From assembly GCA_025057295.1 (NCBI GenBank), contig JANWXO010000001.1, positions 1 to 48,709 on the forward strand: a stretch of 48,709 bases of DNA, in the 5' to 3' direction. The notes under the pieces are model-generated. The model saw nothing but the letters and a program-made list of their open reading frames with translations, had not been told where the DNA came from and made no database searches. Positions 28,681-44,471 of this stretch are shown piece by piece. Made by a program: the position numbers and the translations under genes. Each line of letters begins with the position of its first letter. The stretch's first letter is position 1. The stretch is from Candidatus Binatia bacterium (lineage in GTDB: Bacteria > Desulfobacterota > Binatia > Bin18).

Positions 28681-29151
28681 TCAAAGAGGGGTGTAGTGGG
28701 GCTGGATTCTACCAGGCTCGCCGAGCAGGGTTCCCGACAGCTGCTGCCCACGGCGGGGTGTCTTCTCTTCGACGGTAATATCGTCGAGGTAGAAGCGCAC
28801 GGACGCAAAGGGACCGGTGAGGGAAAAGAACAGTTCCGCCTGCCGATGGCAGTGCTTCTCGACGACGACTCTGCTCAGCATGGGATCGACTGTCAGTTGA
28901 CGCTGCACGAGCACTTCGCCGACAGCGTCAGACACCCCACAGGCGATCGTCTCCCGCCAGGGGTCGAGCAGGCGGAGACGGAGGAACACGCGTACCTCGA
29001 GCTCCCACACGCAGGACGGTAAAGGGAGATACAGCCGTGCCACCTCCTTCATCCGTTGAGCCTGGAGACGAATGATGAGTCCAGTGCCTGACGGCTGTGC
29101 CGTTGCAGTGCCTACCGCCCGCCACGTTGCCGGTACTCCTAACTGTCGCAT
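28681..29151 (-). CDS. Hypothetical protein (156 aa)
   Basis: Good AGGAG RBS 9 nt before ATG 29151. No recognisable domain. C-terminal segment VRFYLDDITVEE. Confidence 0.4.
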   Translation of the reverse strand: MRQLGVPATWRAVGTATAQPSGTGLIIRLQAQRMKEVARLYLPLPSCVWELEVRVFLRLRLLDPWRETIACGVSDAVGEVLVQRQLTVDPMLSRVVVEKHCHRQAELFFSLTGPFASVRFYLDDITVEEKTPRRGQQLSGTLLGEPGRIQPHYTPL

Positions 29152-29307: not shown

Positions 29308-29450
29308 AAAGCAAAGGAACCGTGTGTGTGCACCCGCAGCTGCGGTGCACGCGCGGTGGAGAAACCCTGCTCCCATTTTATGGGACAACGGACACGGTCA
29401 CCGCGGGTATATCATGACCGTGCTCTTTCCCTCCCGCCGTAGGCAGAGGG

Positions 29451-29912
29451 TTATGGTGATTGCACGAACTGAATCCGTAGCAGAGTGGTCGGTGCAGCGG
29501 AGGTCACCTCTGCAGGGCCCCTGAGTTCCCCCAGCCGTGCCAACGCCTGCCGCAGGGGAGTCAGTGCACTCGTGGGCAGCGACGTCACGAGGTGGTCTGC
29601 AGAGTCTCGGATGATGACCGCCTCTGCCGTCTGTCGTATGAGAGCGATGACCTGGCTGCGCAACATAGCCGGGTCTTGCCCAGCAAGACGCCAGGTGAGG
29701 GACTCGATGACGCTGCCACTCCCTTCCGGCAAGGCATGATCGTCCTCCAGGTTTCGCGCGGCGTGAAGCGGCACTGCCTCGACCGCGGTGCTCCTCTCCA
29801 CAGCGAGGCTGGGTGGAACACGGAGGGTGGAGAGGAGAACGGAGACACCCGTGCCGGAGAGGAGCACTACGGTCATCTGTCGTCGCATCCAGGAACGGCA
29901 CCGTACGTCCAT
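29451..29912 (-). CDS. Hypothetical protein, possibly secreted (about 140-153 aa)
   Basis: The ORF starts 46 nt after the DUF2878::CHI-like stop on the same strand. Hydrophobic N-terminus (MTVVLLSGTGVSVLLS). No convincing RBS for any of the three candidate ATGs. No recognised domain. Confidence 0.3.
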   Translation of the reverse strand: MDVRCRSWMRRQMTVVLLSGTGVSVLLSTLRVPPSLAVERSTAVEAVPLHAARNLEDDHALPEGSGSVIESLTWRLAGQDPAMLRSQVIALIRQTAEAVIIRDSADHLVTSLPTSALTPLRQALARLGELRGPAEVTSAAPTTLLRIQFVQSP

Positions 29913-29957
29913 CGCCAGGAGAGAGTATCGCTTGTGCTTTCTGCAGTCAAAGCACCG

Positions 29958-31043
29958 TCAGCGGACTCCCAAGAGCTGAGCTTTGAGCGAGGCGCTCAGC
30001 GGTTGGGGGCCGAGCCAAATGGCGAAATAGGCAGCGGCGAAATCCGCGCCCTCGATCGTGCCTTTGATCTGCCCGTTCAGAGCTAGTTCGGTGCCGATCC
30101 CGGGGATGTAGGTGAGGGAGTAGCGATCCCCAGGTTTCACGTCCTCGTACAAGGCGTGGAGACGGGCGATGCGTGGCTGCAGATGCGCCAGGGTCTCCGG
30201 GGAGACATTGTACGGGAGCAGCGCATCTGCCGCCTTCCCGAAGTCCGGACCAGCGATGGGCCAAAAATAGGCCAGTTCCAGCCGCTTTGGGACGTCGGCG
30301 AGGACCTGGGACGGGTGCACGCCGACACCGAGATAGAGGGCAGCGACGTACCCTTTGAACACGAGGCGGTAGCGCAGCAGGCCGACGCCGTGGAGCAGCA
30401 ATGGCGTTCCGTGGATTTCGTAACGCTCGGGGAAGTGGACGCCTTCGATTTCTGCTGCCCAGCTGGGGAAGGGAGCGAGCGAGAGGGAGCAGAGGAGCAA
30501 CAGCAGACCGCGCGCTTGGCGGACGCGCAAGCCGGAGGCTGGGAGAGCTCTGGCGACCCACACCAGCCCTGGGAGCACGAGTCCCCACGCACCGGCGAGG
30601 ATCAACAGGCTTGGCCACAAGTCCGGGGGAAAGATCACCGCACCCAGGCGCGCACCAGCGTAGTAGCTCAGCGGTCCTCCCAGGGCGCCGAAACAGGCGG
30701 CCAACAGATAGCGGTCCAGCAGCCATCCGAGGGAACCGTGCAGGGTGGTGGCGAAGAGCAGCCACAGGGCAGTGATCCAGGGGGGGCACACCCAGCTCGA
30801 GACCGAGCCGACGAACGTGTAGACTCCACCCCACAGCATGCAGGTATCCAGGAGTGAGCCGGCGATGCCGGCGATCAGCAGCAGCTGTCCCTCGCGCAAC
30901 GCGTTGGCAACCAGCAACAGGTGAAACGTGAGCAAAATGACGACGACGAGCGGGCCGAAGAGGGGGTACCCGCGCGCCGCGCCCAGCACGCAGGCGAACC
31001 AGCCGAGGTAGAAGGCGAGTGCATTCCAGAGAGTCTGGGTCAT
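29958..31043 (-). CDS. Fusion protein: DUF2878 membrane domain plus chalcone-isomerase-like (fatty-acid-binding fold) domain
   Basis: The N-terminal ~170 aa have four hydrophobic helices (WNALAFYLGWFACVLGAARG...LGGPLSYYAGARLGA), typical of DUF2878. The C-terminal ~180 aa (VHFPERYEIHGTPLLLHGVGLLRYRLVFKGYVAALYL...ADFAAAYFAIWLG) resemble a chalcone isomerase-like domain. ATG 31043 overlaps the upstream stop (ATGA). Confidence 0.7.
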   Translation of the reverse strand: MTQTLWNALAFYLGWFACVLGAARGYPLFGPLVVVILLTFHLLLVANALREGQLLLIAGIAGSLLDTCMLWGGVYTFVGSVSSWVCPPWITALWLLFATTLHGSLGWLLDRYLLAACFGALGGPLSYYAGARLGAVIFPPDLWPSLLILAGAWGLVLPGLVWVARALPASGLRVRQARGLLLLLCSLSLAPFPSWAAEIEGVHFPERYEIHGTPLLLHGVGLLRYRLVFKGYVAALYLGVGVHPSQVLADVPKRLELAYFWPIAGPDFGKAADALLPYNVSPETLAHLQPRIARLHALYEDVKPGDRYSLTYIPGIGTELALNGQIKGTIEGADFAAAYFAIWLGPQPLSASLKAQLLGVR

Positions 31044-32317
31044 AGCGGTGGCAGGAGCGGTGCGCGACGGCACTGTGGCTTGGTCAAGAGCATCTGCACG
31101 TCGCCGATGGCGCGTTCATGGAACCCTCCCTCGCAATAACACAGGTAGAACTCCCACATGCGGATGAAGGCCTCTGGGTACCCGAGCGCCCGTACCCTGT
31201 CGGCATGGGCGAGAAAACGTTCGCGCCAGTGGCGGAGCGTGGTGGCGTAGTGGGGCGTCAGATCTTCCAGGTGAAACAGGCGCAAGTCTGTGGCGCGGGT
31301 GAGGGAGTTGCAGATGGCGGTGATCGAGGGAATGCAACTGCCGGGGAAGATATAGCGCTGGATGAAATCGACCGACCGCTTGGCCTGCTCGTATCGCTGG
31401 TCGGCGATCGTGATCGCCTGCAGGAGCATCATCCCGTCGGGTTTGAGCAGGTGACTGCAGCAGCGGAAGTAGGTGTCGTAGTAAGCGTGTCCCACTGCCT
31501 CGATCATTTCGATCGAGACCAGCTTGTCGTACTGACCGGTGAGCGCGCGATAGTCGTCGCAGAGAACGGTGACGCGATCGGCTACCCCGGCAGCGGCAAC
31601 GCGTTGGCGGGCGAGCTCGTACTGCCGCTGGGAGATGGTAGTGGTCGTCACCCGGCAGCCGTAGTGCTGGGCGGCGTAGATGGCAAAACTGCCCCAGCCG
31701 GTGCCGATTTCGACCACGTGGTCCGCCGGCGACAGCTGGAGCTTGCGACAGATGCGGTCGAGCTTGGTGAGCGAGGCCTCCTGCAGCGTGCTCTCGGGGT
31801 GGGTGAAGATCCCGCACGAGTAGGTCATGGTCTCGTCGAGGAACAGCGCGAAGAAGTCGTTCCCCAAATCGTAGTGGGCGGCGATGTTGCGCCGACTCCC
31901 CCTGACCGTATTGCGGTGCAGCGCGTGGTACAGCGTGCGCAGCGGCCCGGTCAGGCGGGCGAGACCGCTCGCCATACCATCCAGCACGGCCCGGTTGCGC
32001 AGCAAGATGCGCACGAGAGCAGTGAGGTCGTCGCACGACCAGAAACCGTCGATGTAGGCTGCGCCGGCACCGATGTCGCCTGCGCGTACGATCGCGTTGT
32101 AGAAGCGGGGATCGTGGACAGAGACGGTGGCGGAGAGCTGACAGTCCGAGGATAGACGTCCGAAGGTCTGTCGGATGTCACCATCAGTGATGGTGATGCA
32201 TCCCTGCTGGAGCTGCTGCAGTTGGGCCAGCACCAGGTGTCGGGCTAGCCGAGTCCAGAGCGGGAGGCGCAAAGCATGGGTTGTCGGCGTTGCCGTTGGA
32301 GTCAGAGCGTCTTTCAT
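31040..32317 (-). CDS. Cyclopropane-fatty-acyl-phospholipid synthase family SAM-dependent methyltransferase (long form, 425 aa)
   Basis: NIAAHYDLGNDFFALFLDETMTYSCGIF, the SAM motif VVEIGTGWGSFAIYAA, and the C-terminal RMWEFYLCYCEGGF, all hallmarks of the CMAS family. Confidence 0.85.
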   Translation of the reverse strand: MKDALTPTATPTTHALRLPLWTRLARHLVLAQLQQLQQGCITITDGDIRQTFGRLSSDCQLSATVSVHDPRFYNAIVRAGDIGAGAAYIDGFWSCDDLTALVRILLRNRAVLDGMASGLARLTGPLRTLYHALHRNTVRGSRRNIAAHYDLGNDFFALFLDETMTYSCGIFTHPESTLQEASLTKLDRICRKLQLSPADHVVEIGTGWGSFAIYAAQHYGCRVTTTTISQRQYELARQRVAAAGVADRVTVLCDDYRALTGQYDKLVSIEMIEAVGHAYYDTYFRCCSHLLKPDGMMLLQAITIADQRYEQAKRSVDFIQRYIFPGSCIPSITAICNSLTRATDLRLFHLEDLTPHYATTLRHWRERFLAHADRVRALGYPEAFIRMWEFYLCYCEGGFHERAIGDVQMLLTKPQCRRAPLLPPL

Positions 32318-33099
32318 AGGTCACGCGGCTCGAACCCGCCGGCCTTGATGGTTGCCGGGTGGGGGTAAAAAGGGGTACGTTTCAGCCACAAGCGCCCGGC
32401 CTGCAGGTAGATGGCAGCGATGACTCTTCCGGTCATGAAGGGGTAGCGGACCAGGCACCAGGTCAGGGCCGGGCCGCTGATCTCTCGACGGGTGAGCACC
32501 ATGGTCGCGTCGAAGAACTTGCTCCCTCCTTGGTGGTTCTCCATGTGAATCACCAGGCGTTGTCCTGGGGTGCTGAACCGCCAGTCGTACTCTACGTCCA
32601 TCCCCATGAAGGGAGAGACATGAAACGCCTTGCCGAAGCGGTAGCGCTTTTTGTGGCCGCCGGCCTCGTTGCGCGCCTCGGGGAGGACGTAACAGTAGCG
32701 CTCGCCCCAGGGGGTGTTGGTCACTTCGGCGACGATCGTCTCGACCCGGCTGTCGCTTGCATCGTAGCAGAAGTAGAAACTGACCGGATTGAAGCAGTAG
32801 CCGAAGTACCGCAGATGGGTGAGGAGACGGATCGGGCCTGCAGGCCGGCATCCGGTGTGATGGGCCACCAACGCACGCACCGCGTCAGCCAAGGGAATCC
32901 GAGGGTCGCCGAAATGGTCGCGGCGACGGAACTGTGCCAGCGTCCGACCTTCGGTGGACCAGAGCCAGCGACCGTGAAAGAGTGTAGGTAACTCATCGAG
33001 ATCGAGGTACATGAGGAAGAGCGAATAGGTGAAGGTGTGGGACACCGGCGCAAAGCGGCGATGACGCACGTAGCCACGGTAGATACAGCTCTGCCTCAT
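32314..33099 (-). CDS. DUF1365 family protein
   Basis: MRQSCIYRGYVRHRRFAPVSHTFTYSLFLMYLDLDEL...RRDHFGDP...FGYCFNPVSFYFCYD are characteristic DUF1365 blocks. ATGA overlaps at both ends. Confidence 0.8.
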   Translation of the reverse strand: MRQSCIYRGYVRHRRFAPVSHTFTYSLFLMYLDLDELPTLFHGRWLWSTEGRTLAQFRRRDHFGDPRIPLADAVRALVAHHTGCRPAGPIRLLTHLRYFGYCFNPVSFYFCYDASDSRVETIVAEVTNTPWGERYCYVLPEARNEAGGHKKRYRFGKAFHVSPFMGMDVEYDWRFSTPGQRLVIHMENHQGGSKFFDATMVLTRREISGPALTWCLVRYPFMTGRVIAAIYLQAGRLWLKRTPFYPHPATIKAGGFEPRDL

Positions 33100-34346
33100 G
33101 ACAGCTTCTTGCCAAAGGTGTGACACACGGTCAAGGCGCTGTTCACCCCGTCTTCGTGAAAGCCGTAGCCCCAGTATGCCCCGCAAAAAGAGGTGCGATG
33201 GTGGAGGCCGCTGAGCTCCCGATGGCGGGCTTGCGCGGCAACGGCCCGCGCGGTGTAAACCGGGTGGTGGTAGATCATGCGCTGGATGATCCGCGTCGGG
33301 TCGATCGCCTCGCTGCGGTTCAGAGTGACGCAGAACGGCTGCGGGGCTGACAGGCTTTGCAAGATATTCATGTTGTAGGTGATCGTTACCCGACCCCGCG
33401 CCTCGCGGGGGATGTGGTAGTTCCAGCTTGCCCATGCACGGCGCCGCCGTGGGAGCAGGCGAGCGTCGGTATGGAGGATCGCCTCGTTTGCCTGGTACGC
33501 AAAGGCTCCCAGGATCTCGCGTTCCGCATCCGTCGGGTCGGCGAGCAGCGCGAGCGCCTGATCGCTGTGAGTGGCGATCACCACGTGCTCGAACCGCTCA
33601 CGCTCCCCAGAGGAGAGGGTGACTACGACCTCCTGGGGAGAGCGGGCAACGGAGCGCACCGGGCACCGGAGGCGAATACGCTCACGGTACGGCCGCGTCA
33701 GCGCTTCGACGTACCGGGCGGCTCCGCCGCGGATCACGTACCATTGAGGCCGTTTGTATACCTGCAGCATACCGTGGTTGTGAAAAAACTGTACGAAATA
33801 CCGGGCAGGGAAATGGAACATCTGTTGGGGATCGGCCGACCAGATCGCCGCTCCCATGGGGATGATGTAGTGGTCGATGAATTCGCGAGAATAGCGGTGG
33901 TCGGTCAGGTAGTCTGCCAGGGTGTCCAGCCCAGTATCGTGCTGCAGAAGAGCCGGAGCAGCTGCGTGGAAGCGCAGAATATCGCGCAGCATGCGATAGA
34001 AGGAGGGGCGAACGAGATTCCGACGTTGGGCAAACAGGGTGTTGAGCGAGGTGCCGTTGTATTCCAGGCCAGTGCGCTCACAGGTGACACTGAAACTCAT
34101 CCTGCTCGGTTGCCAGGCCACCCCTAGCTGTTGCAGGAGCCGCACGAAGTTGGGGTAGGTCTGGTGGTTGAACACAATAAACCCAGTGTCCACCGCGTAG
34201 GTTTTTCCTTCTTGTTCGGCAACTACCGTATGTGTATGTCCCCCGATATAGTCGTTGGCCTCGAAGACGGTGATCTCGTGCTCCTGACCAAGGAGGTAGG
34301 CGGCGACCATACCTGAGATACCGGTCCCGATGATCGCAATTTTCAT
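33096..34346 (-). CDS. NAD(P)/FAD-dependent oxidoreductase (amine-oxidase / phytoene-desaturase-like)
   Basis: MKIAIIGTGISGMVAAYLL...VFEANDYIGGHTHT dinucleotide-binding motif. Conserved position upstream of DUF1365 plus a CFA-synthase-like gene. ATG 34346 overlaps the desaturase stop. Confidence 0.8.
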   Translation of the reverse strand: MKIAIIGTGISGMVAAYLLGQEHEITVFEANDYIGGHTHTVVAEQEGKTYAVDTGFIVFNHQTYPNFVRLLQQLGVAWQPSRMSFSVTCERTGLEYNGTSLNTLFAQRRNLVRPSFYRMLRDILRFHAAAPALLQHDTGLDTLADYLTDHRYSREFIDHYIIPMGAAIWSADPQQMFHFPARYFVQFFHNHGMLQVYKRPQWYVIRGGAARYVEALTRPYRERIRLRCPVRSVARSPQEVVVTLSSGERERFEHVVIATHSDQALALLADPTDAEREILGAFAYQANEAILHTDARLLPRRRRAWASWNYHIPREARGRVTITYNMNILQSLSAPQPFCVTLNRSEAIDPTRIIQRMIYHHPVYTARAVAAQARHRELSGLHHRTSFCGAYWGYGFHEDGVNSALTVCHTFGKKLS

Positions 34347-35356
34347 GGGGCAGGAGCGTGCCGAGAGTACGCTGGGACCACGAGATCGAGCCGCTTCGCT
34401 TCGCGCAGGTGGGGGGGAAGAGGTTTGAGGTCCCAAATGATGCCCAGCCAGGCGAGGACGACGAGGAGATAGTAGGTCAGGTCGATCTCCCACCAGTAAA
34501 ACCCCTGACGAGCGGCGGCTGGATAGTGATGGTGGTTGTTATGCCACCCTTCGCCGAAGGTGATGAGCGCCAAGAACAGGTTGTTGCGGCTCTGGTCGTT
34601 GGTCGCGTAGCGTTGGCGCCCGAACTGATGGGCGAGGGAATTCACGGTGTAGGTACAGTGGTAGAGCACGACGGTGGAGAGGAAAAAGCCCCACACCAGG
34701 AGTTGCAGTCCATTGGTCTCCAGTGCCGGAGCCCAGGCTTCCAGGCCGGCGCCCAATCCGTAAAGGAACCCTGCGAGGGAGAGGGCAACGAGGATGTCGA
34801 AACGATCGAGAAAACAAAGCTCGGGAAATTTGGCCAGGTCCGGCACGGCATGCACCTTCGTGCCGAACGCGGCGGGAGTCAGGAACCAGCCGACATGGCT
34901 CCACCAGAACCCCTGGTGATGGGGGGAGTGGACATCGAGGGCTTGGTCAGAATGTGCGTGGTGGTGGCGGTGATGAGCAGCCCACCACAGAGGACCACGC
35001 TGAACCGCACTGGCCCCCAGTACGGCAAAAACGAACTGCCACCAGCGGGACGTTTTAAACGCGCGGTGGGAGAAGTAGCGGTGGTAGAACGCGGTAATGG
35101 CAAACATGCGAACCGCGTACAACAGCGCCGCCGTAACGACCGCGGTCCAACTCCACCCCACCCAAAAGACCAGACCGCACAGCAGGTGCATGGCGAGAAA
35201 TGGCACGACGCGGAGCCAGTCCACCTGCTGCGCGGACGGGGGTTGCCGCTCCTCGCTCCCCGCCCAAGCGTCAAACCAACGGAGAACGGAGGGAACAAGA
35301 GAGGACAGCCTGGCTGTCAGTGAATGCCTGCGTCTCGACGGGTGGAAAGATGCCAT
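34343..35356 (-). CDS. Membrane acyl-CoA/acyl-lipid desaturase (delta-9 type, three histidine boxes)
   Basis: His boxes HRYFSH, HHRHHHAHSD and WHNNHHHYP, with TM segments between them. 337 aa. Confidence 0.9.
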   Translation of the reverse strand: MASFHPSRRRHSLTARLSSLVPSVLRWFDAWAGSEERQPPSAQQVDWLRVVPFLAMHLLCGLVFWVGWSWTAVVTAALLYAVRMFAITAFYHRYFSHRAFKTSRWWQFVFAVLGASAVQRGPLWWAAHHRHHHAHSDQALDVHSPHHQGFWWSHVGWFLTPAAFGTKVHAVPDLAKFPELCFLDRFDILVALSLAGFLYGLGAGLEAWAPALETNGLQLLVWGFFLSTVVLYHCTYTVNSLAHQFGRQRYATNDQSRNNLFLALITFGEGWHNNHHHYPAAARQGFYWWEIDLTYYLLVVLAWLGIIWDLKPLPPHLREAKRLDLVVPAYSRHAPAP

Positions 35357-35527
35357 ACATCAACCTCTCTCCTGCTTAACCAAAAAAGCGTGGTTCGTCG
35401 AACCCCCCTCTGAAGACGGGTTGCTGCACTCCCTTCGTATGCCCTACGGCTGAGATGCGCCTTTAGATTTTTGTCTGCCCATCGTCTAAGAGGAACGATA
35501 CCACCGACAGGGAGAACAGCGGTGAGC

Positions 35528-36601
35528 ATGCGCGTCGCACTGGAATTGATGGAGAGAGGTCTGGTCCCCGATCCCCTGATCCGCTGGGGGATTCGCCGTT
35601 TGCTGGCGCGGCGGTTACGCCAACAGCAGGCGGCAGACGCAGGGGAAACGGCGCCTGGGGAAGGGGACGGCGATGGCCCCCGCAGCGCCTTGCAGCAGTT
35701 GCTCGTCCAGCTCCGCCAGAGTCCTATCGCGCTGTCTCCCGAGAAGGCGAACGAGCAACACTACGAGTTACCGCCGGCTTTTTTCCAATGCGTCTTGGGC
35801 AAGCGGCTCAAGTACAGCAGTTGTTACTGGCCTGCTGGCGTCACCACGCTCGACGCGGCTGAAGAGGCCATGCTGGAGCTGACCTGCCAACGGGCGCAGG
35901 TGGAGGACGGCATGGAGGTGTTGGAGTTGGGCTGTGGCTGGGGGGCGCTCGCGCTGTGGCTGGCCGAGCACTACCCCCACAGCCGCATCGTTGCGGTGTC
36001 CAATGCGCACGCGCAGGGAGAGTTTATCAGACGCGCATGCGCCCATCGGCAGCTGACCAACCTGGAAGTTGTCACGGCAGACATGAACGAGTTTCACAGC
36101 CCCCGCCAGGTCGATCGGGTTCTCTCGATCGAGATGTTCGAGCACATGCGGAACTACGAGGCATTGTTGACACGCATCGCCTCCTGGCTCAAGCCGCGGG
36201 GGAAACTCTTCGTGCATCTCTTTTGCCATCGTGCGTACGCCTATCCCTTTGAGAGCGAGGGGGAGGATAACTGGCTGGGACGCTATTTTTTCACTGGCGG
36301 CCTGATGCCGTCGGACGACTTGTTGCTCTATTTTCAGCGCGATCTGGTGGTCCAGGAGCACTGGCGCGTGAACGGCTTGCATTACGCGCGCACGGCAGAG
36401 GCGTGGCTGGCGAACCTCGACGCGAGACGTCACCGGGTCCTGCCGCTTCTGGCGGAGGTCTACGGTCCGACGCAGGCGGAACGGTGGTTGCGGCGGTGGC
36501 GCATCTTTTTCCTCGCCTGTGCCGAACTGTTCGCCTACCGTCGCGGGCAGGAGTGGTGGGTCTCTCACTACCTGTTCCAGCGTCGGGACGGAGAGCGCTG
36601 A
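35528..36601 (+). CDS. Cyclopropane-fatty-acyl-phospholipid synthase family SAM-dependent methyltransferase (short form, 357 aa)
   Basis: [28 protein letters not shown], the SAM motif [16 protein letters not shown], and [14 protein letters not shown]. Start trimmed to ATG 35528 (GTG 35522 is also possible). Confidence 0.85.
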
Positions 36602-36731
36602 GTTAGCTGATCGGGCTGCAGGTTACTTCCCCGTGCGGTAGAGCCTTCTCACCACTGCCAGGCGCTTCTCTCGGGACGGCCAGAAGACCAGTGCTCCCCG
36701 GGCACGCGGGGGACGAGCGGCCCCTATTTTC

Positions 36732-36786
36732 TGTGCAAAATATGTTCAATATATTGACAATAAATGTTCATAATGTATGCTCGAGC
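36732..36786 (+). promoter_or_regulatory. AT-rich promoter/operator: 11-bp-phased direct repeats spanning a TTGACA -35 box and a TATGCT -10 candidate (CarH-type operator candidate)
   Basis: Hexamers TGTGCA (36732), TGTTCA (36743), TTGACA (36754), TGTTCA (36765) and TATGCT (36776) start exactly 11 bp apart. The -35/-10 spacing is 16 bp. The RBS GGAGAAAGGAG and GTG 36811 follow. Confidence 0.5.
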
Positions 36787-36810: not shown

Positions 36811-38391
36811 GTGGACTCTGCCCCCCGAGAGGCGCTGGCCGCTGATGCCTTCGATGTCGCTCCGGTGGACGATACCGAGACGCCCCTCCCCCCATGGGCC
36901 GAGGAAGCGTTGACCCCGGAGCAGTTCTTCTCGCTGGCGACCGAGAGTCGACGACACTGGACGGGCGAACGGCGGTTGCTCCTCGCTGTCTTACAGAACG
37001 CCGTCGATGAATTGCTCCGCTATCGCGACGCGCGGACGACGCGGGGCAGGCGGCTCTTCCGCGAAACGCGGGACTGGTTTTGGTCGCGCGAACACACCTA
37101 TCTCTGCGCCTTTGAAACTATCTGTGCCTATCTCCACCTCGATGCCGACTACGTCCGTCAGGGGCTGGAGCGGCTGCTCGACTCGCGGGCTCCGTCTGCG
37201 TTGCCCGCTGCGGCTCGACCGGAGCGTCCGCTCTCCCCTCCCCCCTCTCTCAGCCCTCAGCCTGCTCCCCAGCGAGAGCAAACGCAGGATCATAGATCGC
37301 GCCAATCAAGGAATACGTACTCACAACCTTCTGCTCCGCAGCGAGAGCAAACGCAGGATCGGCAGAAAGAACGGCGTCAGAATCTGAGTCGTACCGGGGT
37401 TGTCTGCACGCGCGCGGTGGCTCATGTAGAAAGGAAGGGGAATACTGTCGTGGGACAACGAGGGGGGCAGGTGGGGGGGAAACTGTCGATCGGCGCTTTG
37501 TCGCGGGCGACCGGTATTCCGGTCGAGACCTTGCGCACCTGGGAACGACGCTACGGGTTTCCGACGCCCGAACGCAAACCCTCTGGTCATCGCGTCTATT
37601 CCCTTTCCAGTGTGCCCCGCCTGCGGCGGATTGCCGAGGCGCTCGCCCAGGGCCATCGCGCCGGTGAGGCGGTGACCGCCTCGGAGGCGGATTTGGAAGC
37701 ACTCCTGGCAATACCGCCTGCGGTTGCAACTTCTGCACCCACTGCGCTGCCCCGGAGGGATACAGAGGAGGTCGCCGACCTGTTCTCGCTCGTCGAAGCA
37801 TTCGACGCGCCTCGCTTGACCCGTGTGTTGGCTGATGAGTGGCGGCGCCTCGGCCCGCTCGAGTGTCTCTGCTCTCGTATCGTTCCCCTCGTGCGTGCGG
37901 TGGGAGAGGCGTGGGAGACAGCGCGACTGGAGATTCGGCACGAGCATTTTCTCTCCGAGCGCCTGAGCGACTTCCTGCGTGCCCGCCGGCTCGCATTCGA
38001 ACGGCGCGCGCATGGGCCGCTCGTCGTATGCGTGACTTTGCCAGGCGAGGCCCACAGCCTGGGGTTACAGATGGTGGCGCTCTTGCTCGCTCAGGCGGGG
38101 TGTCGGGTGCTCTATCTGGGCACCGAGGTCCCGGTGGGACAGATTGCCGGGGTCGCCAGAGATTTTCGCGCCCGTGCGGTTGCGGTCAGTATTTCCTCTG
38201 CCAACCAGGGAGGGGCGATGGTGGTGCAGGTCGAGCGGTTACGCGCACTCTTGCCGCGACGTGTCACCCTCTTGCTCGGGGGGGATGGCGCACCGGCACC
38301 ACGACCAGGGATGAAAGTCATACAGGATTTGCCTACACTTGCAGCGTGGGGGCGACAGCTCGTCGCCGCAACCAGCCAGGAGGAAACATGA
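36811..38391 (+). CDS. CarH/LitR-type MerR-family regulator with an AdoB12-binding light-sensor domain, read as a 526-aa protein with an uncharacterised ~210-aa N-terminal extension (alternative canonical-size start at GTG 37450)
   Basis: MerR HTH LSIGALSRATGIPVETLRTWERRYGFPTPERKPSGHRVYS. Wx9EH motif W-ETARLEIRH-EH at 37912..37947. ExHxxG motif EAHSLG at 38047..38064 inside a Rossmann-like B12 domain (VVCVTLPGEAHSLGLQMVALLLAQAGCRVLYLG). No in-frame stop between 36811 and 38391. The internal GTG 37450 has RBS AAGGAAGGGG 9 nt upstream. Confidence 0.8.
   Translation: MDSAPREALAADAFDVAPVDDTETPLPPWAEEALTPEQFFSLATESRRHWTGERRLLLAVLQNAVDELLRYRDARTTRGRRLFRETRDWFWSREHTYLCAFETICAYLHLDADYVRQGLERLLDSRAPSALPAAARPERPLSPPPSLSPQPAPQREQTQDHRSRQSRNTYSQPSAPQREQTQDRQKERRQNLSRTGVVCTRAVAHVERKGNTVVGQRGGQVGGKLSIGALSRATGIPVETLRTWERRYGFPTPERKPSGHRVYSLSSVPRLRRIAEALAQGHRAGEAVTASEADLEALLAIPPAVATSAPTALPRRDTEEVADLFSLVEAFDAPRLTRVLADEWRRLGPLECLCSRIVPLVRAVGEAWETARLEIRHEHFLSERLSDFLRARRLAFERRAHGPLVVCVTLPGEAHSLGLQMVALLLAQAGCRVLYLGTEVPVGQIAGVARDFRARAVAVSISSANQGGAMVVQVERLRALLPRRVTLLLGGDGAPAPRPGMKVIQDLPTLAAWGRQLVAATSQEET
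37262..37360 (+). repeat. Two copies of a 30-bp direct repeat (29/30 identical), 69 bp start-to-start, inside the regulator linker
   Basis: 37262..37291 ctgctccCcagcgagagcaaacgcaggatc and 37331..37360 ctgctccGcagcgagagcaaacgcaggatc. In frame, each encodes APQREQTQD. Confidence 0.85.
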
Positions 38392-38870
38392 AACGTCAGC
38401 GCTGGTATCTGTTGTTGTGCTGTGTGTTGTTCGGTTGTGCTCCTCCTCCTCAGACGCCGCAGGAGCAACTCGCTGCGCGCCATATTCCCTTTACGCCTGC
38501 CGCGTTCCTGAGAAGCGCGGAGACCGGGGATCTCATCGCGGTGAACCTGTTTCTTGCAGCCGGCATGGATCCCAACGTGCGGGATCGCTCCGGTGGCACC
38601 CCGCTGCGCTACGCCGCCGCCAAAGGACATCTCGACGTCGTTCGCGTCTTGCTCGACAAGGGGGCCGACGTCAACGCGCAGGACATCGATGGCTTTACTC
38701 CGCTGCGGTACGCTACCTACTATGGGCACACGGAAGTCGTCCGTGTCCTGCTCGACAAAGGGGCCGATCCCAACATCACGGATAAGTGGGGGTGGACGCC
38801 GGTGATGATCGCTCCCCACGGCAACCTCGATATCGTGCAGTTATTGCAAACCGCTGGCGCGCGGCGGTGA
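38388..38870 (+). CDS. Ankyrin-repeat lipoprotein
   Basis: Lipobox LFGC. Three to four ANK repeats (GGTPLRYAAAKGHLDVVRVLLDKGADVNAQD / GFTPLRYATYYGHTEVVRVLLDKGADPNITD). ATG 38388 overlaps the regulator stop (ATGA). Confidence 0.85.
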   Translation: MKRQRWYLLLCCVLFGCAPPPQTPQEQLAARHIPFTPAAFLRSAETGDLIAVNLFLAAGMDPNVRDRSGGTPLRYAAAKGHLDVVRVLLDKGADVNAQDIDGFTPLRYATYYGHTEVVRVLLDKGADPNITDKWGWTPVMIAPHGNLDIVQLLQTAGARR

Positions 38871-40136: not shown

Positions 40137-40931
40137 CTAGCGACCCCGACGAACGCGCGGGAACCAGGGCAAAAAGGCGTTGGTCGTGTCGATGTATTCG
40201 CGGTATTCTGGCCGGCGCTCTGTAATGGTCTGTTCCAACAGGGCCACGCCTGACACTTTCAATAACAGTGTGGTCATGAGCAGCGGACTGACAATAGTCC
40301 ATGCTCCGCCGGGGATGGAGAGGGCCAAGAAGAAGTATCCCCACCAGACCATGGCGTCGCCGAAGTAGTTCGGATGGCGGGTGTACGCCCACAATCCCCT
40401 GCACATGACCCGGCCACGATTGGCTGGGTCGGCCTGAAAACGTGCGAGCTGCCAGTCACCTACGCTCTCGAAGAAAAAGCCGATCCCCCAGCAGAGGAGG
40501 CCGATCCCGTCTGTCCACGTCCAGGCGCGTGGACCGACACTCATCTGCACGACAAAGAGGGGGGTAGCGATCAGCCAGATGAGCACCCCTTGTAACAGGA
40601 AGATGGTAAAGAGGCTCATCCACCAGAAACGCTCCCCGCGGTATGCCCGCATGGCCTGGTAACGTCGGTCTTCCCCTTGTCCCCAGTTGCGCCACAGCAG
40701 GTATGCCGCCAGTCGCACGCCCCAGAGCGTGACCAGGGTCAGGGACAAGAGATGACGGGGAGTGGTCTGCGGGCCCAGTGCGCGGTACAACCAGGCCAGG
40801 CCGACGAACCCGAGGCCCCAGAAGATGTCCACGATGCTGGCATCCCGTTTCAGCACGCTGATCAGCCATAGAACGCTCATGGCTCCCAAGATGACTGCCA
40901 AACCTACCCCGAGAGCGCCGATCATGTTCAT
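40137..40931 (-). CDS. DUF1295 family membrane protein (steroid 5-alpha-reductase / ICMT-like fold)
   Basis: RDASIVDIFWGLGF...WRNWGQGEDRRY...GLWAYTRHPNYFGDAMVWWG...LLLKVSGVALLE is typical of DUF1295. Start trimmed to ATG 40931. 264 aa. Confidence 0.8.
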   Translation of the reverse strand: MNMIGALGVGLAVILGAMSVLWLISVLKRDASIVDIFWGLGFVGLAWLYRALGPQTTPRHLLSLTLVTLWGVRLAAYLLWRNWGQGEDRRYQAMRAYRGERFWWMSLFTIFLLQGVLIWLIATPLFVVQMSVGPRAWTWTDGIGLLCWGIGFFFESVGDWQLARFQADPANRGRVMCRGLWAYTRHPNYFGDAMVWWGYFFLALSIPGGAWTIVSPLLMTTLLLKVSGVALLEQTITERRPEYREYIDTTNAFLPWFPRVRRGR

Positions 40932-41069
40932 TGCCCGCACACAAGCATAGCGGTGCTGTCGTGTCAATGTGCGCGAGAACAGCAGCGACGCGACGTGAGC
41001 CACCCTAGTAGCGGAGCAAGACAGGCGTGATAAGTATGCTCTTCCTGCGCGCGGGCAGGAGCAAGAGTA

Positions 41070-42464
41070 GTGAGCGGCATGAAGACGGAACGGTTTGTCT
41101 ATCGCACCCATATCCCTGCGCCCGCGCCCGAAGTCTTTGCATGGCATGTGCGTCCTGGTGCGTTTGAACGCTTAGCTCCCCCGTGGGCGCCGGTGGAGGT
41201 CGTCGAGCGCACCGGTGGGATCGAGCACGGCGCACGGGTCGTGTTACGGATCTCCCTCGGTCCGGTGTCGCGTCTTTGGGTTGCCGAACACCGCGATGTC
41301 GAGGCGGGACGTCAGTTCCGCGACGTACAACTCCAGGGACCGTTCGCGTATTGGGAGCACACCCACCGCGTCGAGCCCGACGGGCCGACTGCATGTTATC
41401 TGGAGGACGAGATTACCTATGCGCTCCCCTGTGGGATGGTGGGCCGTCTGATCGGCACAACCTTCGTGCACCGCCAACTCCAGCGGCTCTTTGCCTATCG
41501 ACACCAGGTGATCGCACACGATATCGTACAACACCGCACGCGTAGCGCGGAGGGTGCGATGCGGATCGTCGTGACAGGAGCGAGTGGGTTGATCGGCTCG
41601 GCCCTGGTGCCTTTTCTCACCACCGGGGGACACCAGGTGACACGCCTGGTGCGCTCGCAGCCCAGACCGGGTGCGGCGGAGGTGCAGTGGGATCCCCTGG
41701 CGGGCAGGCTGGAGGCCACCGCACTCGAAGGGGTCGATGCGGTCGTACACCTGGCGGGGGAGAATGTCGCGGCAGGCCGCTGGACGGCGGCACGCAAAGC
41801 TGCCATCCGTGACAGCCGCGTGCGCGGGACACAGGTGCTCTGTGACGCGCTGGCACGACTGTCGCGGCCACCGCGGGTGGTAGTCAGTGCCAGCGCCATC
41901 GGCTACTATGGGGACCGCGGTGACGAGCTCCTGCGCGAGGACAGCGCGCCGGGCGCAGGCTTTTTGGCTGAGGTGTGCCGTGCCTGGGAGGCAGCAACCC
42001 AACCCGCGGTACAGAAGGGCATTCGTGTCGTGCTCCTCCGCTTTGGTGTGGTGTTGAGTCCGGCAGGGGGAGCGTTAGCGAAAATGCTGCTCCCGTTCAA
42101 AATCGGCCTCGGCGGAGTGGTCGGCAGCGGAAAGCAGTACATGAGTTGGATTGGGATCGATGATGCCGTCGGGGCGATTCACCATGTCTTACACACCGAA
42201 GCGCTCCAGGGTCCGGTGAATGTCGTTGCGCCACATCCGGTGACCAACGCCGAATTTACCGCTACGTTGGCACGTGTGTTGCGGCGGCCCGCGCTCGTGC
42301 CGCTGCCGGCCGTGGCTGCTCGCCTGGTTTTTGGTGAGATGGCCGATGCCCTGCTGCTGGCGAGTGCGCGCGTCGAGCCCACACGGCTCCTCGCTACTGC
42401 CTACTCCTTCCGTCACGCGACCCTCGAAGATGCCCTGCGCCATGTGTTGGGGATGCCGTCCTAG
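41070..42464 (+). CDS. Fusion protein: SRPBCC (START/polyketide-cyclase-like) domain plus TIGR01777/SDR39U1-type NAD(P)-binding epimerase family domain
   Basis: The N-terminal ~150 aa (FVYRTHIPAPAPEVFAWHVRPGAFERLAPPW...GPFAYWEHTHR) are SRPBCC-like. Then IVVTGASGLIGSALVPFL...HLAGENVAAGRWT...YGDRGDE...LRFGVVL (YfcH-like with a DUF1731-type C-terminus). AGGAG RBS 8 nt before GTG 41070. Confidence 0.75.
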   Translation: MSGMKTERFVYRTHIPAPAPEVFAWHVRPGAFERLAPPWAPVEVVERTGGIEHGARVVLRISLGPVSRLWVAEHRDVEAGRQFRDVQLQGPFAYWEHTHRVEPDGPTACYLEDEITYALPCGMVGRLIGTTFVHRQLQRLFAYRHQVIAHDIVQHRTRSAEGAMRIVVTGASGLIGSALVPFLTTGGHQVTRLVRSQPRPGAAEVQWDPLAGRLEATALEGVDAVVHLAGENVAAGRWTAARKAAIRDSRVRGTQVLCDALARLSRPPRVVVSASAIGYYGDRGDELLREDSAPGAGFLAEVCRAWEAATQPAVQKGIRVVLLRFGVVLSPAGGALAKMLLPFKIGLGGVVGSGKQYMSWIGIDDAVGAIHHVLHTEALQGPVNVVAPHPVTNAEFTATLARVLRRPALVPLPAVAARLVFGEMADALLLASARVEPTRLLATAYSFRHATLEDALRHVLGMPS

Positions 42465-42600
42465 ACGGCTTGGCCACAGCGTGCTTGCCGGGAGAGGGGT
42501 AAACAGGGGTGGGGAGGAACGCCGATAACCGCCAATTGGGTGCGGGGGTGACACCCTGAGGAGCAGAGGGACGAACAGAGGAACAGGTCGCGGTTGCTGT

Positions 42601-43104
42601 ATGGGTACACGTTGGCTCAACTCTTTTTTCTTCTTTCTCGAGAATCTCAGCGTTGGGGTGTGGATCGGTGCGCTCGTCACCTTCGGCTTTGCCGTAGCGC
42701 GCCCGATCTTTCGTTCCTTGCCCAGTGTGACGACTGCAGGAGGGATCACGGCCGAGATTTTGCACCGCATCCAGATACTGGAGACCGCCGCGGCTGTGAT
42801 CCTTGCGGTCTCAGCCGCGGTGTTTCTCCTGCAGTCGGCACAGCGCACCCCGGTACGCTTGGCGAAAACGGCTCTGGCCGTTCTCATGATTCTCGTCTTT
42901 TATTACTATGGGGTGGTGTTGATGGAGCGGCTCGAGCATCTCCGCCTCGTCGAAATTCGTGACTTTGACCGTTTCGATGCTGCAACCGCAGCATTCCGTG
43001 ACGAGTTTGACCGCTTGCATCGGCTGTATACCCGCCTGGCGCAGGCCAACCTCTGGATGGGACTGGGCTTCCTCTTTCTCTCGGCATGGGAGCGCAAAGC
43101 CTGA
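42601..43104 (+). CDS. DUF4149 (TMEM205-like) membrane protein
   Basis: 167 aa, four predicted TM helices. N-terminal LENLSVGVWIGALVTFGFAVARPIF resembles DUF4149. Assigned by eye. Confidence 0.55.
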   Translation: MGTRWLNSFFFFLENLSVGVWIGALVTFGFAVARPIFRSLPSVTTAGGITAEILHRIQILETAAAVILAVSAAVFLLQSAQRTPVRLAKTALAVLMILVFYYYGVVLMERLEHLRLVEIRDFDRFDAATAAFRDEFDRLHRLYTRLAQANLWMGLGFLFLSAWERKA

Positions 43105-43122
43105 GAGAGAGGGAACACGGCG

Positions 43123-44370: not shown

Positions 44371-44471
44371 GGCGCCGGACGAGCAAGGTGAAAGCTCGGT
44401 GCCAAGGGGTTGCTGTCTCCTGTCTACTGGTGAGGGATGAGATCCTCTGCAGGGGAGAGAGGCCCGCAGGA

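Follow-up and report, generated by a model that had tools for sequence, protein, structure and literature searches.

A candidate methylated furan fatty acid locus in an uncultured Candidatus Binatia bacterium

The locus at positions 29958–36601 of a 48,709-nt stretch of Candidatus Binatia bacterium DNA (GCA_025057295.1, contig JANWXO010000001.1, positions 1 to 48,709 of the forward strand; hereafter the window) probably encodes a self-sufficient version of the bacterial pathway that forms methylated furan fatty acids (FuFA) on phospholipid acyl chains. The organism is uncultured and the contig is derived from a metagenome-assembled genome (MAG). In the characterised systems cis-vaccenate is methylated by UfaM and given a second double bond by UfaD, an FAD desaturase; UfaO, the characterised DUF1365 protein, closes the furan by inserting an O2-derived oxygen, and a further methylation by FufM supplies the second methyl (PMC7380195). 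These steps had been given correctly in a preliminary description of this DNA, the FuFA interpretation of which largely stands, with corrections on three points: the additional genes, the 425-aa methyltransferase and the regulator. FAD-oxidoreductase, DUF1365 and methyltransferase stand here in the order known from the ufaD-ufaO-ufaM operons of R. palustris and Halomonas, which have been proven by experiment.

Organisation of the locus

The five minus-strand genes and the divergent CMAS-family gene were present as first listed, and Pfam returned every domain named earlier (FA_desaturase, Amino_oxidase, DUF1365, CMAS twice, DUF2878 and Chalcone_3). The features are as follows.

34343..35356, minus strand: SCD-type (Delta9) integral-membrane di-iron acyl desaturase, first cistron, 337 aa
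33096..34346, minus strand: UfaD-like FAD-dependent acyl desaturase (Pfam, synteny), amine-oxidase fold, 416 aa
32314..33099, minus strand: UfaO-like DUF1365 protein, 261 aa; proposed O2-dependent furan-ring-forming step
31040..32317, minus strand: UfaM-type SAM methyltransferase (MT425), 425 aa; function proposed
29958..31043, minus strand: fusion protein, 361 aa; DUF2878 polytopic membrane domain (residues 5–158) and chalcone-isomerase (CHI)/FAP-fold domain (residues 196–359, Pfam Chalcone_3)
29934..29955, minus strand: possible weak stem-loop, GTGCTTT-8 nt-AAAGCAC, directly 3' of the last stop of the operon, without a U-run
35357..35527, no strand: divergent regulatory region common to the five-gene operon and the second methyltransferase
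35528..36601, plus strand: FufM-type (CNMT/LIME1-like) SAM methyltransferase (MT357), 357 aa, or 359 aa from GTG 35522

Direct reading of each junction confirmed four minus-strand ATGA stop/start overlaps linking the five ORFs (34346–34343, 33099–33096, 32317–32314 and 31043–31040). A clear Shine-Dalgarno sequence precedes the first cistron only (GGAGAGAGG upstream of ATG 35356), while at the four internal starts it is absent or weak, a pattern consistent with coupled re-initiation. All four 4-nt overlaps recur in a 90%-identical relative (L081), and among 80 related loci such overlaps were found at 15/32 desaturase-UfaD, 22/73 UfaD-DUF1365, 48/70 DUF1365-methyltransferase and 8/18 methyltransferase-DUF2878 junctions. 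The overlaps, their conservation and the single strong Shine-Dalgarno sequence indicate coupling, and in the proposed reading ribosomes enter at one strong binding site and translate all five genes in a coupled manner. The divergent gene is separated from the operon by the 171 bp described previously (165 bp with a start at GTG 35522, like that of the 90% relative), and alignment with L081 reveals conserved blocks in this region, e.g. TACGGCTGAGA..CGCCTTTAGATTT.TGTC.GCCCATCGTCTAA. Within it a promoter scan gave no match to the sigma-70 consensus, and no CarH-type operator was found (best score 8/15). The stem-loop was absent from the terminator-scan output.

The first cistron (Pfam FA_desaturase, 1.4e-20) matches mouse SCD1 (4ymk; 1e-30 over residues 34–313), with which its His boxes HRYFSH, HHRHHHAHSD and HNNHHH align. 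The product of 33096..34346 contains Amino_oxidase (3.4e-28) and NAD_binding_8 domains, and its best solved relative is LkcE (3e-44). The third protein matches the full-length DUF1365 profile (4.6e-85); its AF2 model (pLDDT 91.7) is a beta-barrel with a long C-terminal helix, for which no close solved relative was found. Family membership and conserved synteny suggest that these two proteins are UfaD-like and UfaO-like, respectively. Among validated enzymes of the pathway, direct sequence comparison covered Halomonas UfaM.

The synteny counts cover 39 related loci, from many phyla, whose flanks are complete. A UfaD-like gene lies directly upstream of DUF1365 in 38 of these, the position held by ufaD in R. 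palustris and Halomonas; a UfaM-type gene is adjacent in 37, and a desaturase homolog is present in 22 and adjacent in 18. Four related loci have the order desaturase-UfaD-DUF1365-DUF2878 with no methylase nearby, and a plasmid of the cultured Acinetobacter piscicola carries the same gene set, adjoining a photolyase. Since DUF2878, CHI-like proteins and the desaturase recur across these loci and on the plasmid, they are widespread members of the cluster and not the locus-specific additions that they had been taken for. Only the DUF2878::CHI fusion, found in 27 Binatia-like clusters among the matches listed, is clade-specific (Binatia). On the plasmid the two methyltransferase genes of the operon have a DUF1295 gene between them; the window has one nearby, which probably belongs to the extended lipid cluster as an associated gene.

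40137..41147, minus strand: DUF1295 membrane protein (Pfam DUF1295, 1.6e-72, residues 93–322), its true start probably later than 41147

The neighbouring CarH operon

Regulation by RpoE-ChrR, as in R. sphaeroides, had been brought into the preliminary description. No RpoE-ChrR pair occurs within the window, and the regulator encoded next to the locus is a CarH of the AdoB12 type.

36728..36782, plus strand: predicted CarH-type operator, tandem 11-bp repeats AAATATGTTCA / ATATATTGACA / ATAAATGTTCA
36811..37449, plus strand: conserved hypothetical gene upstream of carH, RBS AAAGGAG and GTG 36811; 166 aa in relatives
37450..38391, plus strand: AdoB12-type CarH/LitR photoreceptor-repressor, 313 aa; MerR HTH and B12-binding domains (Pfam)
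38388..38870, plus strand: ankyrin-repeat protein, 160 aa (Pfam Ank_2, 1e-34)

The CarH protein (NCBIfam TransRegCarH, 4.8e-34; 87% identity to that of L081) contains the motifs Wx9EH (WETARLEIRHEH) and ExHxxG (EAHSLG). The predicted operator overlaps the -35 of the promoter TTGACA-16-TATGCT (promoter scan), and its footprint is near-invariant against L081 and another relative, L082, while the flanks diverge. Scoring 13/15, it is the sole site in the window at 11/15 or above; shuffled windows gave a mean of 0.01 sites at 13 or above. The CarH operon thus has a strong predicted operator at its own promoter and the lipid operon promoter region has none. The hypothetical gene, for which a Pfam search gave no match, shows 78% identity over 138 aa to its L081 homolog and in this contig runs into carH without an in-frame stop. 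An ATGA overlap (junction GGAGGAAACATGA) couples the ankyrin gene, conserved in L081 and in loci L085 and L086, to carH.

The two methyltransferases and alternative readings

That the methyltransferases might prove to be canonical cyclopropane synthases had been set beforehand as evidence against the pathway. For each enzyme the outcome favours the pathway. Both fall below the NCBIfam Cfa equivalog cut-off of 400 (MT425, 299 bits; MT357, 160 bits); MT425 (Pfam CMAS, 1.8e-90) groups with UfaM, and MT357 (Pfam CMAS, 1.3e-39) lies in the coclaurine-N-methyltransferase (CNMT)/LIME1 branch, to which FufM probably also belongs. In R. palustris and Halomonas the in-operon methylase is UfaM; MT425 is therefore the expected UfaM and not an additional Cfa-like protein.

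The best PDB sequence match of MT425 is E. coli Cfa (6e-59), and true cyclopropane synthases occur among plant FAD-oxidase::CMAS fusions. In R. sphaeroides the CMAS gene at the same operon position, RSP1089, is dispensable, UfaM having its gene elsewhere (PMC7380195), so that position alone is no proof of UfaM function. It is nonetheless very unlikely that MT425 makes cyclopropanes, or is a dispensable paralog like RSP1089, with the true UfaM absent or elsewhere and the operon yielding cyclopropane lipids, or others that are oxidised or branched, in place of furans. The identity of MT425 to the validated Halomonas UfaM is 57%, whereas E. coli Cfa reaches 37% and Halomonas Cfa 32%, and the tree places MT425 with Halomonas UfaM and apart from Cfa (bootstrap 196/200); the Halomonas UfaM reference is OCR text with frameshifts, of which about 135 clean columns were used. 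Gln replaces the Cfa bicarbonate-ligand His266 in 19/19 MT425-type proteins and in Halomonas UfaM, all of which share the motif EMIEAVGH. A lack of any functional unit, the genes being merely adjacent through independent transcription or decayed in the MAG assembly, can practically be discounted: no promoter or terminator consensus stands out for the operon genes, the contig is from a MAG and the neighbouring hypothetical/carH pair has lost a stop codon, but all six ORFs are unbroken and match their Pfam profiles at full length, and independent assemblies (90% and 79% identity) have exactly this layout and these overlaps, which are also broadly conserved.

Somewhat less remote, though still unlikely, is a pathway ending at monomethyl FuFA, with MT357 methylating an amine, another lipid or a small molecule and being merely co-regulated with the operon. 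The closest solved relatives of MT357 are N-methyltransferases: it matches CNMT (6gkv) over its full length (4.9e-80, 273 bits), as against 3e-30 and 109 bits for E. coli Cfa, and joins CNMT in 200/200 bootstraps. The R. palustris FufM is unlinked to the ufa operon, and FufM homologs, as Lemke et al. state, occur in only a subset of ufa-containing organisms (PMC7380195). Orthologs of MT357 (50–71% identity) are nevertheless located no more than 10 kb from the ufaD-ufaO core in 26 of the 39 fully flanked loci, in many phyla, and often adjoin DUF2878 or sit inside the operon. FufM is reported to be 37.9% identical to LIME1, a plant CNMT-like protein, and only 26% to UfaM, which matches the 24% identity of MT357 to MT425; for no other characterised bacterial enzyme has a resemblance to LIME1 been reported. 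By this indirect chain, MT357 to CNMT and FufM to LIME1, MT357 would be of FufM type.

Proposed pathway

The analysis shows the gene anatomy, the domain families, the clades of both methylases, the conserved synteny and the CHI fold; from these we infer each chemical step, the substrate chain and position, the topology and the regulation at the Binatia locus. The SCD-type desaturase would use O2 to convert a saturated chain to a cis-monoene, onto which MT425 would transfer methyl from SAM; as MT425 has no Cfa bicarbonate-ligand His, release of a methyl-branched trans-alkene, not a cyclopropane, is proposed. The UfaD-like flavoenzyme would then introduce a second, conjugated double bond, the UfaO-like protein would insert one O atom from O2 and close the furan ring, giving monomethyl FuFA, and MT357 would add the second ring methyl to give dimethyl FuFA.

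The fusion, which unites two uncharacterised helper domains, would be an accessory membrane protein. Its AF2 model (pLDDT 91.5) gave Foldseek matches to CHI, CHIL, FAP1 and FAP3 at probability 1.00. A signal-peptide-like segment (about residues 170–196, RVRQARGLLLLLCSLSLAPFPSWA|AE) lies between the two domains, stand-alone homologs have N-terminal signal-like segments, and the lipid-binding-fold domain is predicted to face the periplasm. By likeness to RSP1088-1087, ring formation can probably proceed without the fusion, which may instead handle FuFA or its oxidation products.

Methylated furan fatty acids are antioxidant lipids. The Binatia locus is no new kind of system; it is a fuller, uncharacterised variant of the known FuFA pathway.

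The lipid operon and its setting

The locus is very probably a known kind of system, that for furan fatty acid (FuFA) synthesis, in a fuller and so far uncharacterised architecture; the chemistry assigned to it is predicted throughout from sequence. FuFAs are membrane lipids which scavenge radicals and singlet oxygen, and to our knowledge their biosynthesis has been worked out in two alphaproteobacteria only. The whole pathway, which acts on phospholipid acyl chains, was established by Lemke et al. 2020: cis-vaccenate is converted to 11Me-12t-18:1 by UfaM, 11Me-10t,12t-18:2 is made by UfaD, an FAD desaturase, 9M5-FuFA is made with O2 by UfaO, a DUF1365 protein, and 9D5-FuFA is the product of FufM, which shows 26% identity to UfaM (PMC7380195). 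The genes of the locus are:

34343-35356, minus strand, histidine-box desaturase
33096-34346, minus strand, UfaD-like protein
32314-33099, minus strand, UfaO-like DUF1365 protein
31040-32317, minus strand, MT425, a 425-aa CMAS-family methyltransferase of putative UfaM type
29958-31043, minus strand, fusion of DUF2878 to a chalcone-isomerase-like (CHI) domain
35528-36601, plus strand, MT357, a divergent 357-aa methyltransferase of putative FufM type

The preliminary description had placed an ATGA stop/start overlap at each of the four minus-strand junctions, and all four were found at those positions, joining the five ORFs. Its domain calls also held in a profile-HMM check, in which Pfam returned FA_desaturase, Amino_oxidase/NAD_binding_8, DUF1365, CMAS, and DUF2878 with Chalcone_3; the divergent gene, as had been proposed, belongs to the CMAS family too, with a weaker match (Pfam 1.3e-39). 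A good Shine-Dalgarno sequence is present at the first cistron only, the internal starts being essentially without one, and this pattern together with the overlaps looks like that of a termination-reinitiation operon; we infer co-transcription of the five genes. Assemblies made independently, at 90% and 79% identity, keep the layout and the 4-nt overlaps, and each of the four junctions often shows such an overlap among the 80 related loci (48 of 70 for DUF1365 to methyltransferase). Scans for sigma-70 promoters and intrinsic terminators gave nothing above shuffled sequences within the lipid operon or its promoter region, and an Rfam scan of the window returned no family at the gathering threshold.

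The GC content is about 62% along the whole window, with composition unbroken at the lipid locus, and the neighbours are ordinary diderm chromosomal genes (MlaD/MlaE, Clp-type ATPase, M1 peptidase, L,D-transpeptidase, TPP enzyme and isocitrate dehydrogenase by Pfam/NCBIfam). Between the operon end and the TPP-enzyme gene are two small minus-strand ORFs (28681-29151 and 29398-29901) with no Pfam matches, annotated as genes of 156 aa in L081, the 90% relative, and not in L085, the 79% relative. On the other side, the region 40137-46529 holds genes typical of photo-oxidative-stress islands:

40137-41147, minus strand, DUF1295 gene
41070-42464, plus strand, gene with SRPBCC, epimerase and DUF1731 domains
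43123-44370, plus strand, second amine oxidase, considered as a UfaD paralogue and rejected at 24% identity to the UfaD-like protein
44472-46529, minus strand, B12-binding radical SAM enzyme

Enzymes of the predicted pathway

The label 'cfa' is routinely given in error to UfaM-type methylases. Canonical cyclopropane fatty acid synthase (Cfa) has in common with the window enzymes the CMAS fold and, as predicted for the latter, a SAM-dependent attack at a cis double bond in the acyl chain of a phospholipid. The earlier proposal that the methyltransferases serve another pathway was upheld to the extent that neither of the two METHYLTRANSFERASES (MT425, MT357) is a canonical Cfa: neither falls in the Cfa clade, and both score under the NCBIfam Cfa equivalog cut-offs (NF008686, cut-off 400 bits, MT425 299 and MT357 160; NF053839 and NF040703, also below cut-off).

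MT425 contains the CMAS fold at residues 141-404 (Pfam 1.8e-90). Its closest experimentally tested relative is UfaM of the gammaproteobacterium Halomonas sp. YLGW01, in which ufaD, ufaO and ufaM are consecutive and whose ufaM yields 11-methyl-octadec-12-enoate in E. coli; a desaturase, a FufM-type gene and a CHI partner are unreported there. The Halomonas ufaM and true cfa DNA printed in the supplement of that paper served as the validated reference. As these carry OCR frameshifts, the intact C-terminal part was used with garbled columns masked, and over the 135 columns left MT425 is closer to Halomonas UfaM (57% identity) than to the Cfa proteins of E. coli (37%) and Halomonas (32%). By neighbour-joining, 19 MT425-type sequences (the window and 18 related loci) and Halomonas UfaM formed one clade in 196 of 200 bootstraps, with the E. 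coli and Halomonas Cfa proteins apart.

The bicarbonate ligands of Cfa, which we take to be C139/E239/H266/I268/Y317 in E. coli numbering, are not all present in MT425, which keeps Glu239 and Tyr317 and has glutamine in place of His266. This glutamine recurs in 19/19 MT425-type proteins and, read in the correct frame (VMLQAITIRD), in Halomonas UfaM; both also have the flanking motif EMIEAVGH, as against GMFEHVG in Cfa. The two features are a candidate signature by which UfaM-type methylases may be told from cyclopropane synthases, an empirical one drawn from the present comparison rather than an established definition. It is plausible that the change of His266 to Gln is the reason why the carbocation would end as a methyl-alkene and not as a cyclopropane, and the proposed product of MT425 is a methyl-branched trans-monoene, for example 11Me-12t-18:1.

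The closest solved relatives of MT357 are the plant coclaurine (CNMT), pavine and tetrahydroprotoberberine N-methyltransferases. Over its full length it matches CNMT (6gkv) at 4.9e-80 (273 bits), whereas E. coli Cfa reaches 3e-30 (109 bits). All of 200 bootstraps place MT357 with CNMT, and its identity to MT425 is 24%. At the Cfa bicarbonate positions E, H and Y are kept, but with I268 changed to F and a two-residue deletion after EMFEHM the set is again incomplete. MT357 thus resembles CNMT, FufM resembles LIME1/AT4G33110 of Arabidopsis (37.9% identity), presumably a CNMT-like protein, and FufM shares only 26% identity with UfaM; this chain, indirect but coherent, points to MT357 being of the FufM type. 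Its role as methylase for a dimethyl product is somewhat less certain. In R. palustris the gene adjoining fufM, RPA0923, was deleted along with fufM by Lemke et al. (PMC7380195), and might encode the DUF2878 partner.

The UfaD-like protein combines an FAD/NAD Rossmann with an amine-oxidase fold (Pfam Amino_oxidase, NAD_binding_8), its nearest solved relative being the amine oxidase LkcE, and its gene is directly upstream of that for DUF1365. The latter, located between the ufaD-like and CMAS genes, specifies a full-length DUF1365 domain (Pfam 4.6e-85, profile 1-234/235). Family membership and conserved gene order support the assignment of 33096-34346 and 32314-33099 as putative UfaD and UfaO, respectively. 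The AlphaFold model of the DUF1365 protein (pLDDT 91.7, pTM 0.89) consists of a beta-barrel and a long C-terminal helix, for which a fold search gave weak calycin-like matches only (FABP-like Ycf58, nitrobindin, lipocalins; E >= 4e-3); PDB sequence matches to designed 'Cake' proteins were discarded as an artefact of short repetitive segments. Three histidines are invariant (H13, H160, H185) and three nearly so (H62, H95, H247) in alignment A4, and, speculatively, the conserved histidines could bind a metal at which O2 is activated.

Alignment of the desaturase to mouse SCD1 (4ymk; 1e-30) brings the histidine boxes of the two proteins into register. The desaturase scores 72.6 bits against the DesA-family equivalog, whose cut-off is 400, and because it falls so far below this it is not considered a DesA; by sequence it is assigned to the stearoyl-CoA-desaturase (Delta9) type.

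The DUF2878::CHI protein and the CarH operon

DUF2878 and the CHI domain are truly fused in the last operon gene. In the model of its product (pLDDT 91.5) a DUF2878 membrane domain of helices is followed by a hydrophobic segment of low confidence and then by a CHI-fold domain, the last recognised by Pfam (Chalcone_3, 6e-37) and by Foldseek, with probability 1.00 to plant CHI, CHIL, FAP1 and FAP3, the fatty-acid-binding proteins FAP3 and FAP1 at 4e-7 and 1.6e-6 (TMt about 0.6). Arg and Tyr residues R224, Y232, Y237 and R254 are invariant in alignment A3. Since the linker, RVRQARG-LLLLLCSLSLAPFPSWA|AE, resembles a signal peptide, and since stand-alone CHI-like homologues of other lineages are separate genes opening with a signal-like segment, an extracytoplasmic position is predicted for the CHI-fold domain. 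Among the matches listed, the fusion occurs in at least 27 protein clusters (46-100% identity), essentially all Binatia-like, and outside Binatia-like sequences DUF2878 and CHI-like proteins are separate; apparent fusions in loci L008 and L009 were rejected as artefacts of a crude test. DUF2878 and the CHI-fold domain are taken to be accessory membrane and periplasmic lipid-binding-fold proteins.

A CHI-like domain is also joined to a GTP-cyclohydrolase-I-like domain in protein P0235, a JGI gene call. In Pseudomonas, folE is a light-induced gene of the LitR regulon, so that light regulons may generally include CHI-like proteins.

Downstream of MT357 is a separate operon made up of a conserved hypothetical gene starting at GTG 36811, carH (37450-38391) and an ankyrin gene. 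The carH product contains a MerR HTH and a B12-binding domain with the motifs Wx9EH and ExHxxG, read by eye, which we take to be marks of AdoB12-type (class I) CarH/LitR; on these features the protein is placed in that class. The operon promoter, TTGACA-16-TATGCT, was the sole sigma-70-like match in 9.6 kb, and overlaps the following feature, scored against the 11-bp repeat nAnnTnnACAn, presumably the operator rule of Thermus CarH:

36728-36782, plus strand, predicted CarH-type operator, tandem 11-bp repeats over the -35 of TTGACA-16-TATGCT, 13/15

This carH site was the only one found by the pattern search. By score it is the single site in the window at 11/15 or better, and shuffled windows gave a mean of 0.01 sites at 13 or better. 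The operator block is nearly invariant in comparison with 90% relatives and its flanks diverge. An operator at its own promoter implies that the hyp-carH-ank operon would be autoregulated in a light- and B12-dependent manner.

Control of the lipid operon by the same protein was looked for, and no CarH-type operator was found in the lipid promoter region, 35357-35527, where the best score on either strand was 8/15. This 171-bp region between the lipid operon and MT357 has conserved blocks of its own, and carH is absent altogether from a 79% relative. Direct CarH control of the lipid genes is thus not supported. Genes for an ECF sigma factor or a ChrR anti-sigma were not found among the profiled ORFs of the 48.7-kb contig. 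Light control of the lipid genes is nevertheless plausible by analogy, and by neighbourhood too.

The hypothetical gene and carH (36811-38391, plus strand) form one open frame in the window, with no stop between them and a duplicated PQREQTQD-rich stretch in the linker, while in L081 a TGA splits hyp (166 aa) from carH (313 aa); a genuine fusion, a variant with read-through or a difference between assemblies could each account for the frame. The ankyrin-repeat protein (38388-38870, plus strand, 160 aa) is ATGA-coupled to carH, and its gene adjoins the cluster even in L085 and L086, both without carH. Ankyrin proteins are unusual in bacteria.

Distribution, related systems and significance

A scan with the DUF1365 protein, using one genome per species, gave 80 loci at 53-70% identity, all in MAGs, and the best 120 matches in each of three homologue searches were all from uncultured organisms. 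The loci belong to Binatia, Nitrospirota, Acidobacteriota, Gammaproteobacteria (Woeseiaceae, Steroidobacteraceae and others), Desulfobacterota, Planctomycetota, Gemmatimonadota, Sumerlaeota and more. Gene neighbourhoods were counted in the 39 loci flanked on both sides by 6 kb or more. A UfaD-like gene is adjacent in 38 of these and an MT425-type gene in 37; 22 carry the desaturase (directly upstream of the UfaD-like gene in 18), 26 an MT357-type gene, 26 a DUF2878 gene, 13 a CarH-like gene and seven a CHI-like gene. The preliminary description had spoken of DUF2878 and the CHI-like fold as partners added by this locus. Such partners recur among the 39 loci, and some of them on an Acinetobacter plasmid, so that they belong as a rule to an extended cluster which is widespread.

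The MT357-type gene may be divergent upstream, as in the window, convergent downstream, or part of a CarH-MT357-DUF2878 module. In gammaproteobacterial loci such as L032, L041, L049, L064 and L079, the recurrent order CarH-like, MT357-type, DUF2878 stands upstream of Des-UfaD-DUF1365-MT425 (Des, desaturase). Three acidobacteriotal loci (L018, L019, L028) and one from Sumerlaeota (L039) have Des-UfaD-like-DUF1365-DUF2878, the UfaD-like gene being absent in L039, and no CMAS-family methyltransferase was found within their flanks; either UfaM is encoded elsewhere in these organisms or the product is non-methylated.

Judged by gene order and description, one of the nearest characterised arrangements is that of R. 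palustris CGA009, where the three genes RPA2571-2570-2569 (ufaD-ufaO-ufaM) are both required and sufficient, with fufM (RPA0924) at another locus (PMC7380195). The core order, FAD desaturase, DUF1365, CMAS methylase, is the same, and R. palustris likewise has a second CMAS-family methylase, about 25% identical, for dimethyl-FuFA. The window, from Binatota rather than Alphaproteobacteria, differs in having a histidine-box desaturase as first cistron, the DUF2878::CHI fusion as last, and the FufM-type gene divergent and adjacent instead of at a remote locus. In R. sphaeroides (Cereibacter) the operon RSP1091(ufaD)-1090(ufaO)-1089-1088-1087 ends in three dispensable genes and ufaM is unlinked (PMC7380195). 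This five-gene operon, in which ufaD-ufaO are followed by a CMAS-family gene (RSP1089, itself dispensable; UfaM is RSP2144) and small accessory genes, is induced by photo-oxidative stress through an ECF sigma/anti-sigma pair (RpoE-ChrR), whereas the window has a B12-photoreceptor as neighbour.

The DUF2878-containing clusters of Pseudomonas, Vibrio and Aeromonas (SDR, FAD oxidoreductase, DUF1365, ufaM/cfa, DUF2878) resemble the window in the core plus DUF2878 and in a MerR-family regulator nearby. They are light- or blue-light-induced under class II LitR/PhrR (LOV partners) and/or ChrR-sigmaE, whereas the regulator in the window is of class I, an AdoB12-type CarH with an operator of its own, and the lipid operon lacks an SDR gene. 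CarH of Thermus and Myxococcus is like the window protein in its MerR HTH, B12-binding domain, Wx9EH and ExHxxG motifs and 11-bp-repeat operator over the -35 of its own promoter; the known targets are carotenoid genes, whereas the window carH adjoins a lipid-modification locus with no operator in the lipid promoter region.

A cultured host of the extended gene set is Acinetobacter piscicola, whose plasmid pYH12207-1 carries an annotated but uncharacterised cluster of acyl-CoA desaturase, FAD oxidoreductase, DUF1365, CFA-synthase family, DUF1295 and MT357-type genes in that order, with a photolyase and a chalcone-isomerase-family gene nearby and 34-55% identity to the window proteins. Unlike the window, it has DUF1295 inside the operon, a co-directional second methylase and an unfused CHI-like gene, and DUF2878 and CarH are absent. 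The same four enzyme families recur in Arabidopsis UFAMD1 (AT3G23510), UFAO1 (AT1G30130) and LIME1/FUFM1 (AT4G33110), proposed for plant FuFA synthesis, the last sharing the LIME1/CNMT type with MT357; these are eukaryotic lipid-droplet proteins of predicted function, with UfaD and UfaM fused.

One joint reading of the locus, which we regard as improbable, goes beyond the four-step pathway, which the combination of desaturase, UfaM/D/O, FufM-type, DUF2878/CHI and DUF1295 proteins exceeds. The Delta9-type desaturase would shift the chemistry to a FuFA positional isomer unknown from bacteria, and the periplasm-facing CHI fold on DUF2878 would be a module for binding or transfer of FuFA/dioxoene lipids, or for O-heterocycle processing, moving or repairing sacrificial antioxidant lipids across the envelope. 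If true, it would give DUF2878 and the bacterial CHI-like proteins their first functions.

The FuFA pathway is not known to have been described before in the Binatota. The predicted pathway would reach well beyond the Proteobacteria, to Binatia, Nitrospirota, Acidobacteriota, Planctomycetota and others, often as a self-contained package with its own desaturase and dimethyl-FuFA methylase. EMIEAVGH with Gln for Cfa-His266 may serve as a practical sequence signature against cyclopropane synthases, and three conserved unknowns, DUF2878, the bacterial CHI-fold proteins and DUF1295, are nominated, the extended gene set occurring in a cultured Acinetobacter. This is an incremental but usable extension, which leaves current understanding standing.
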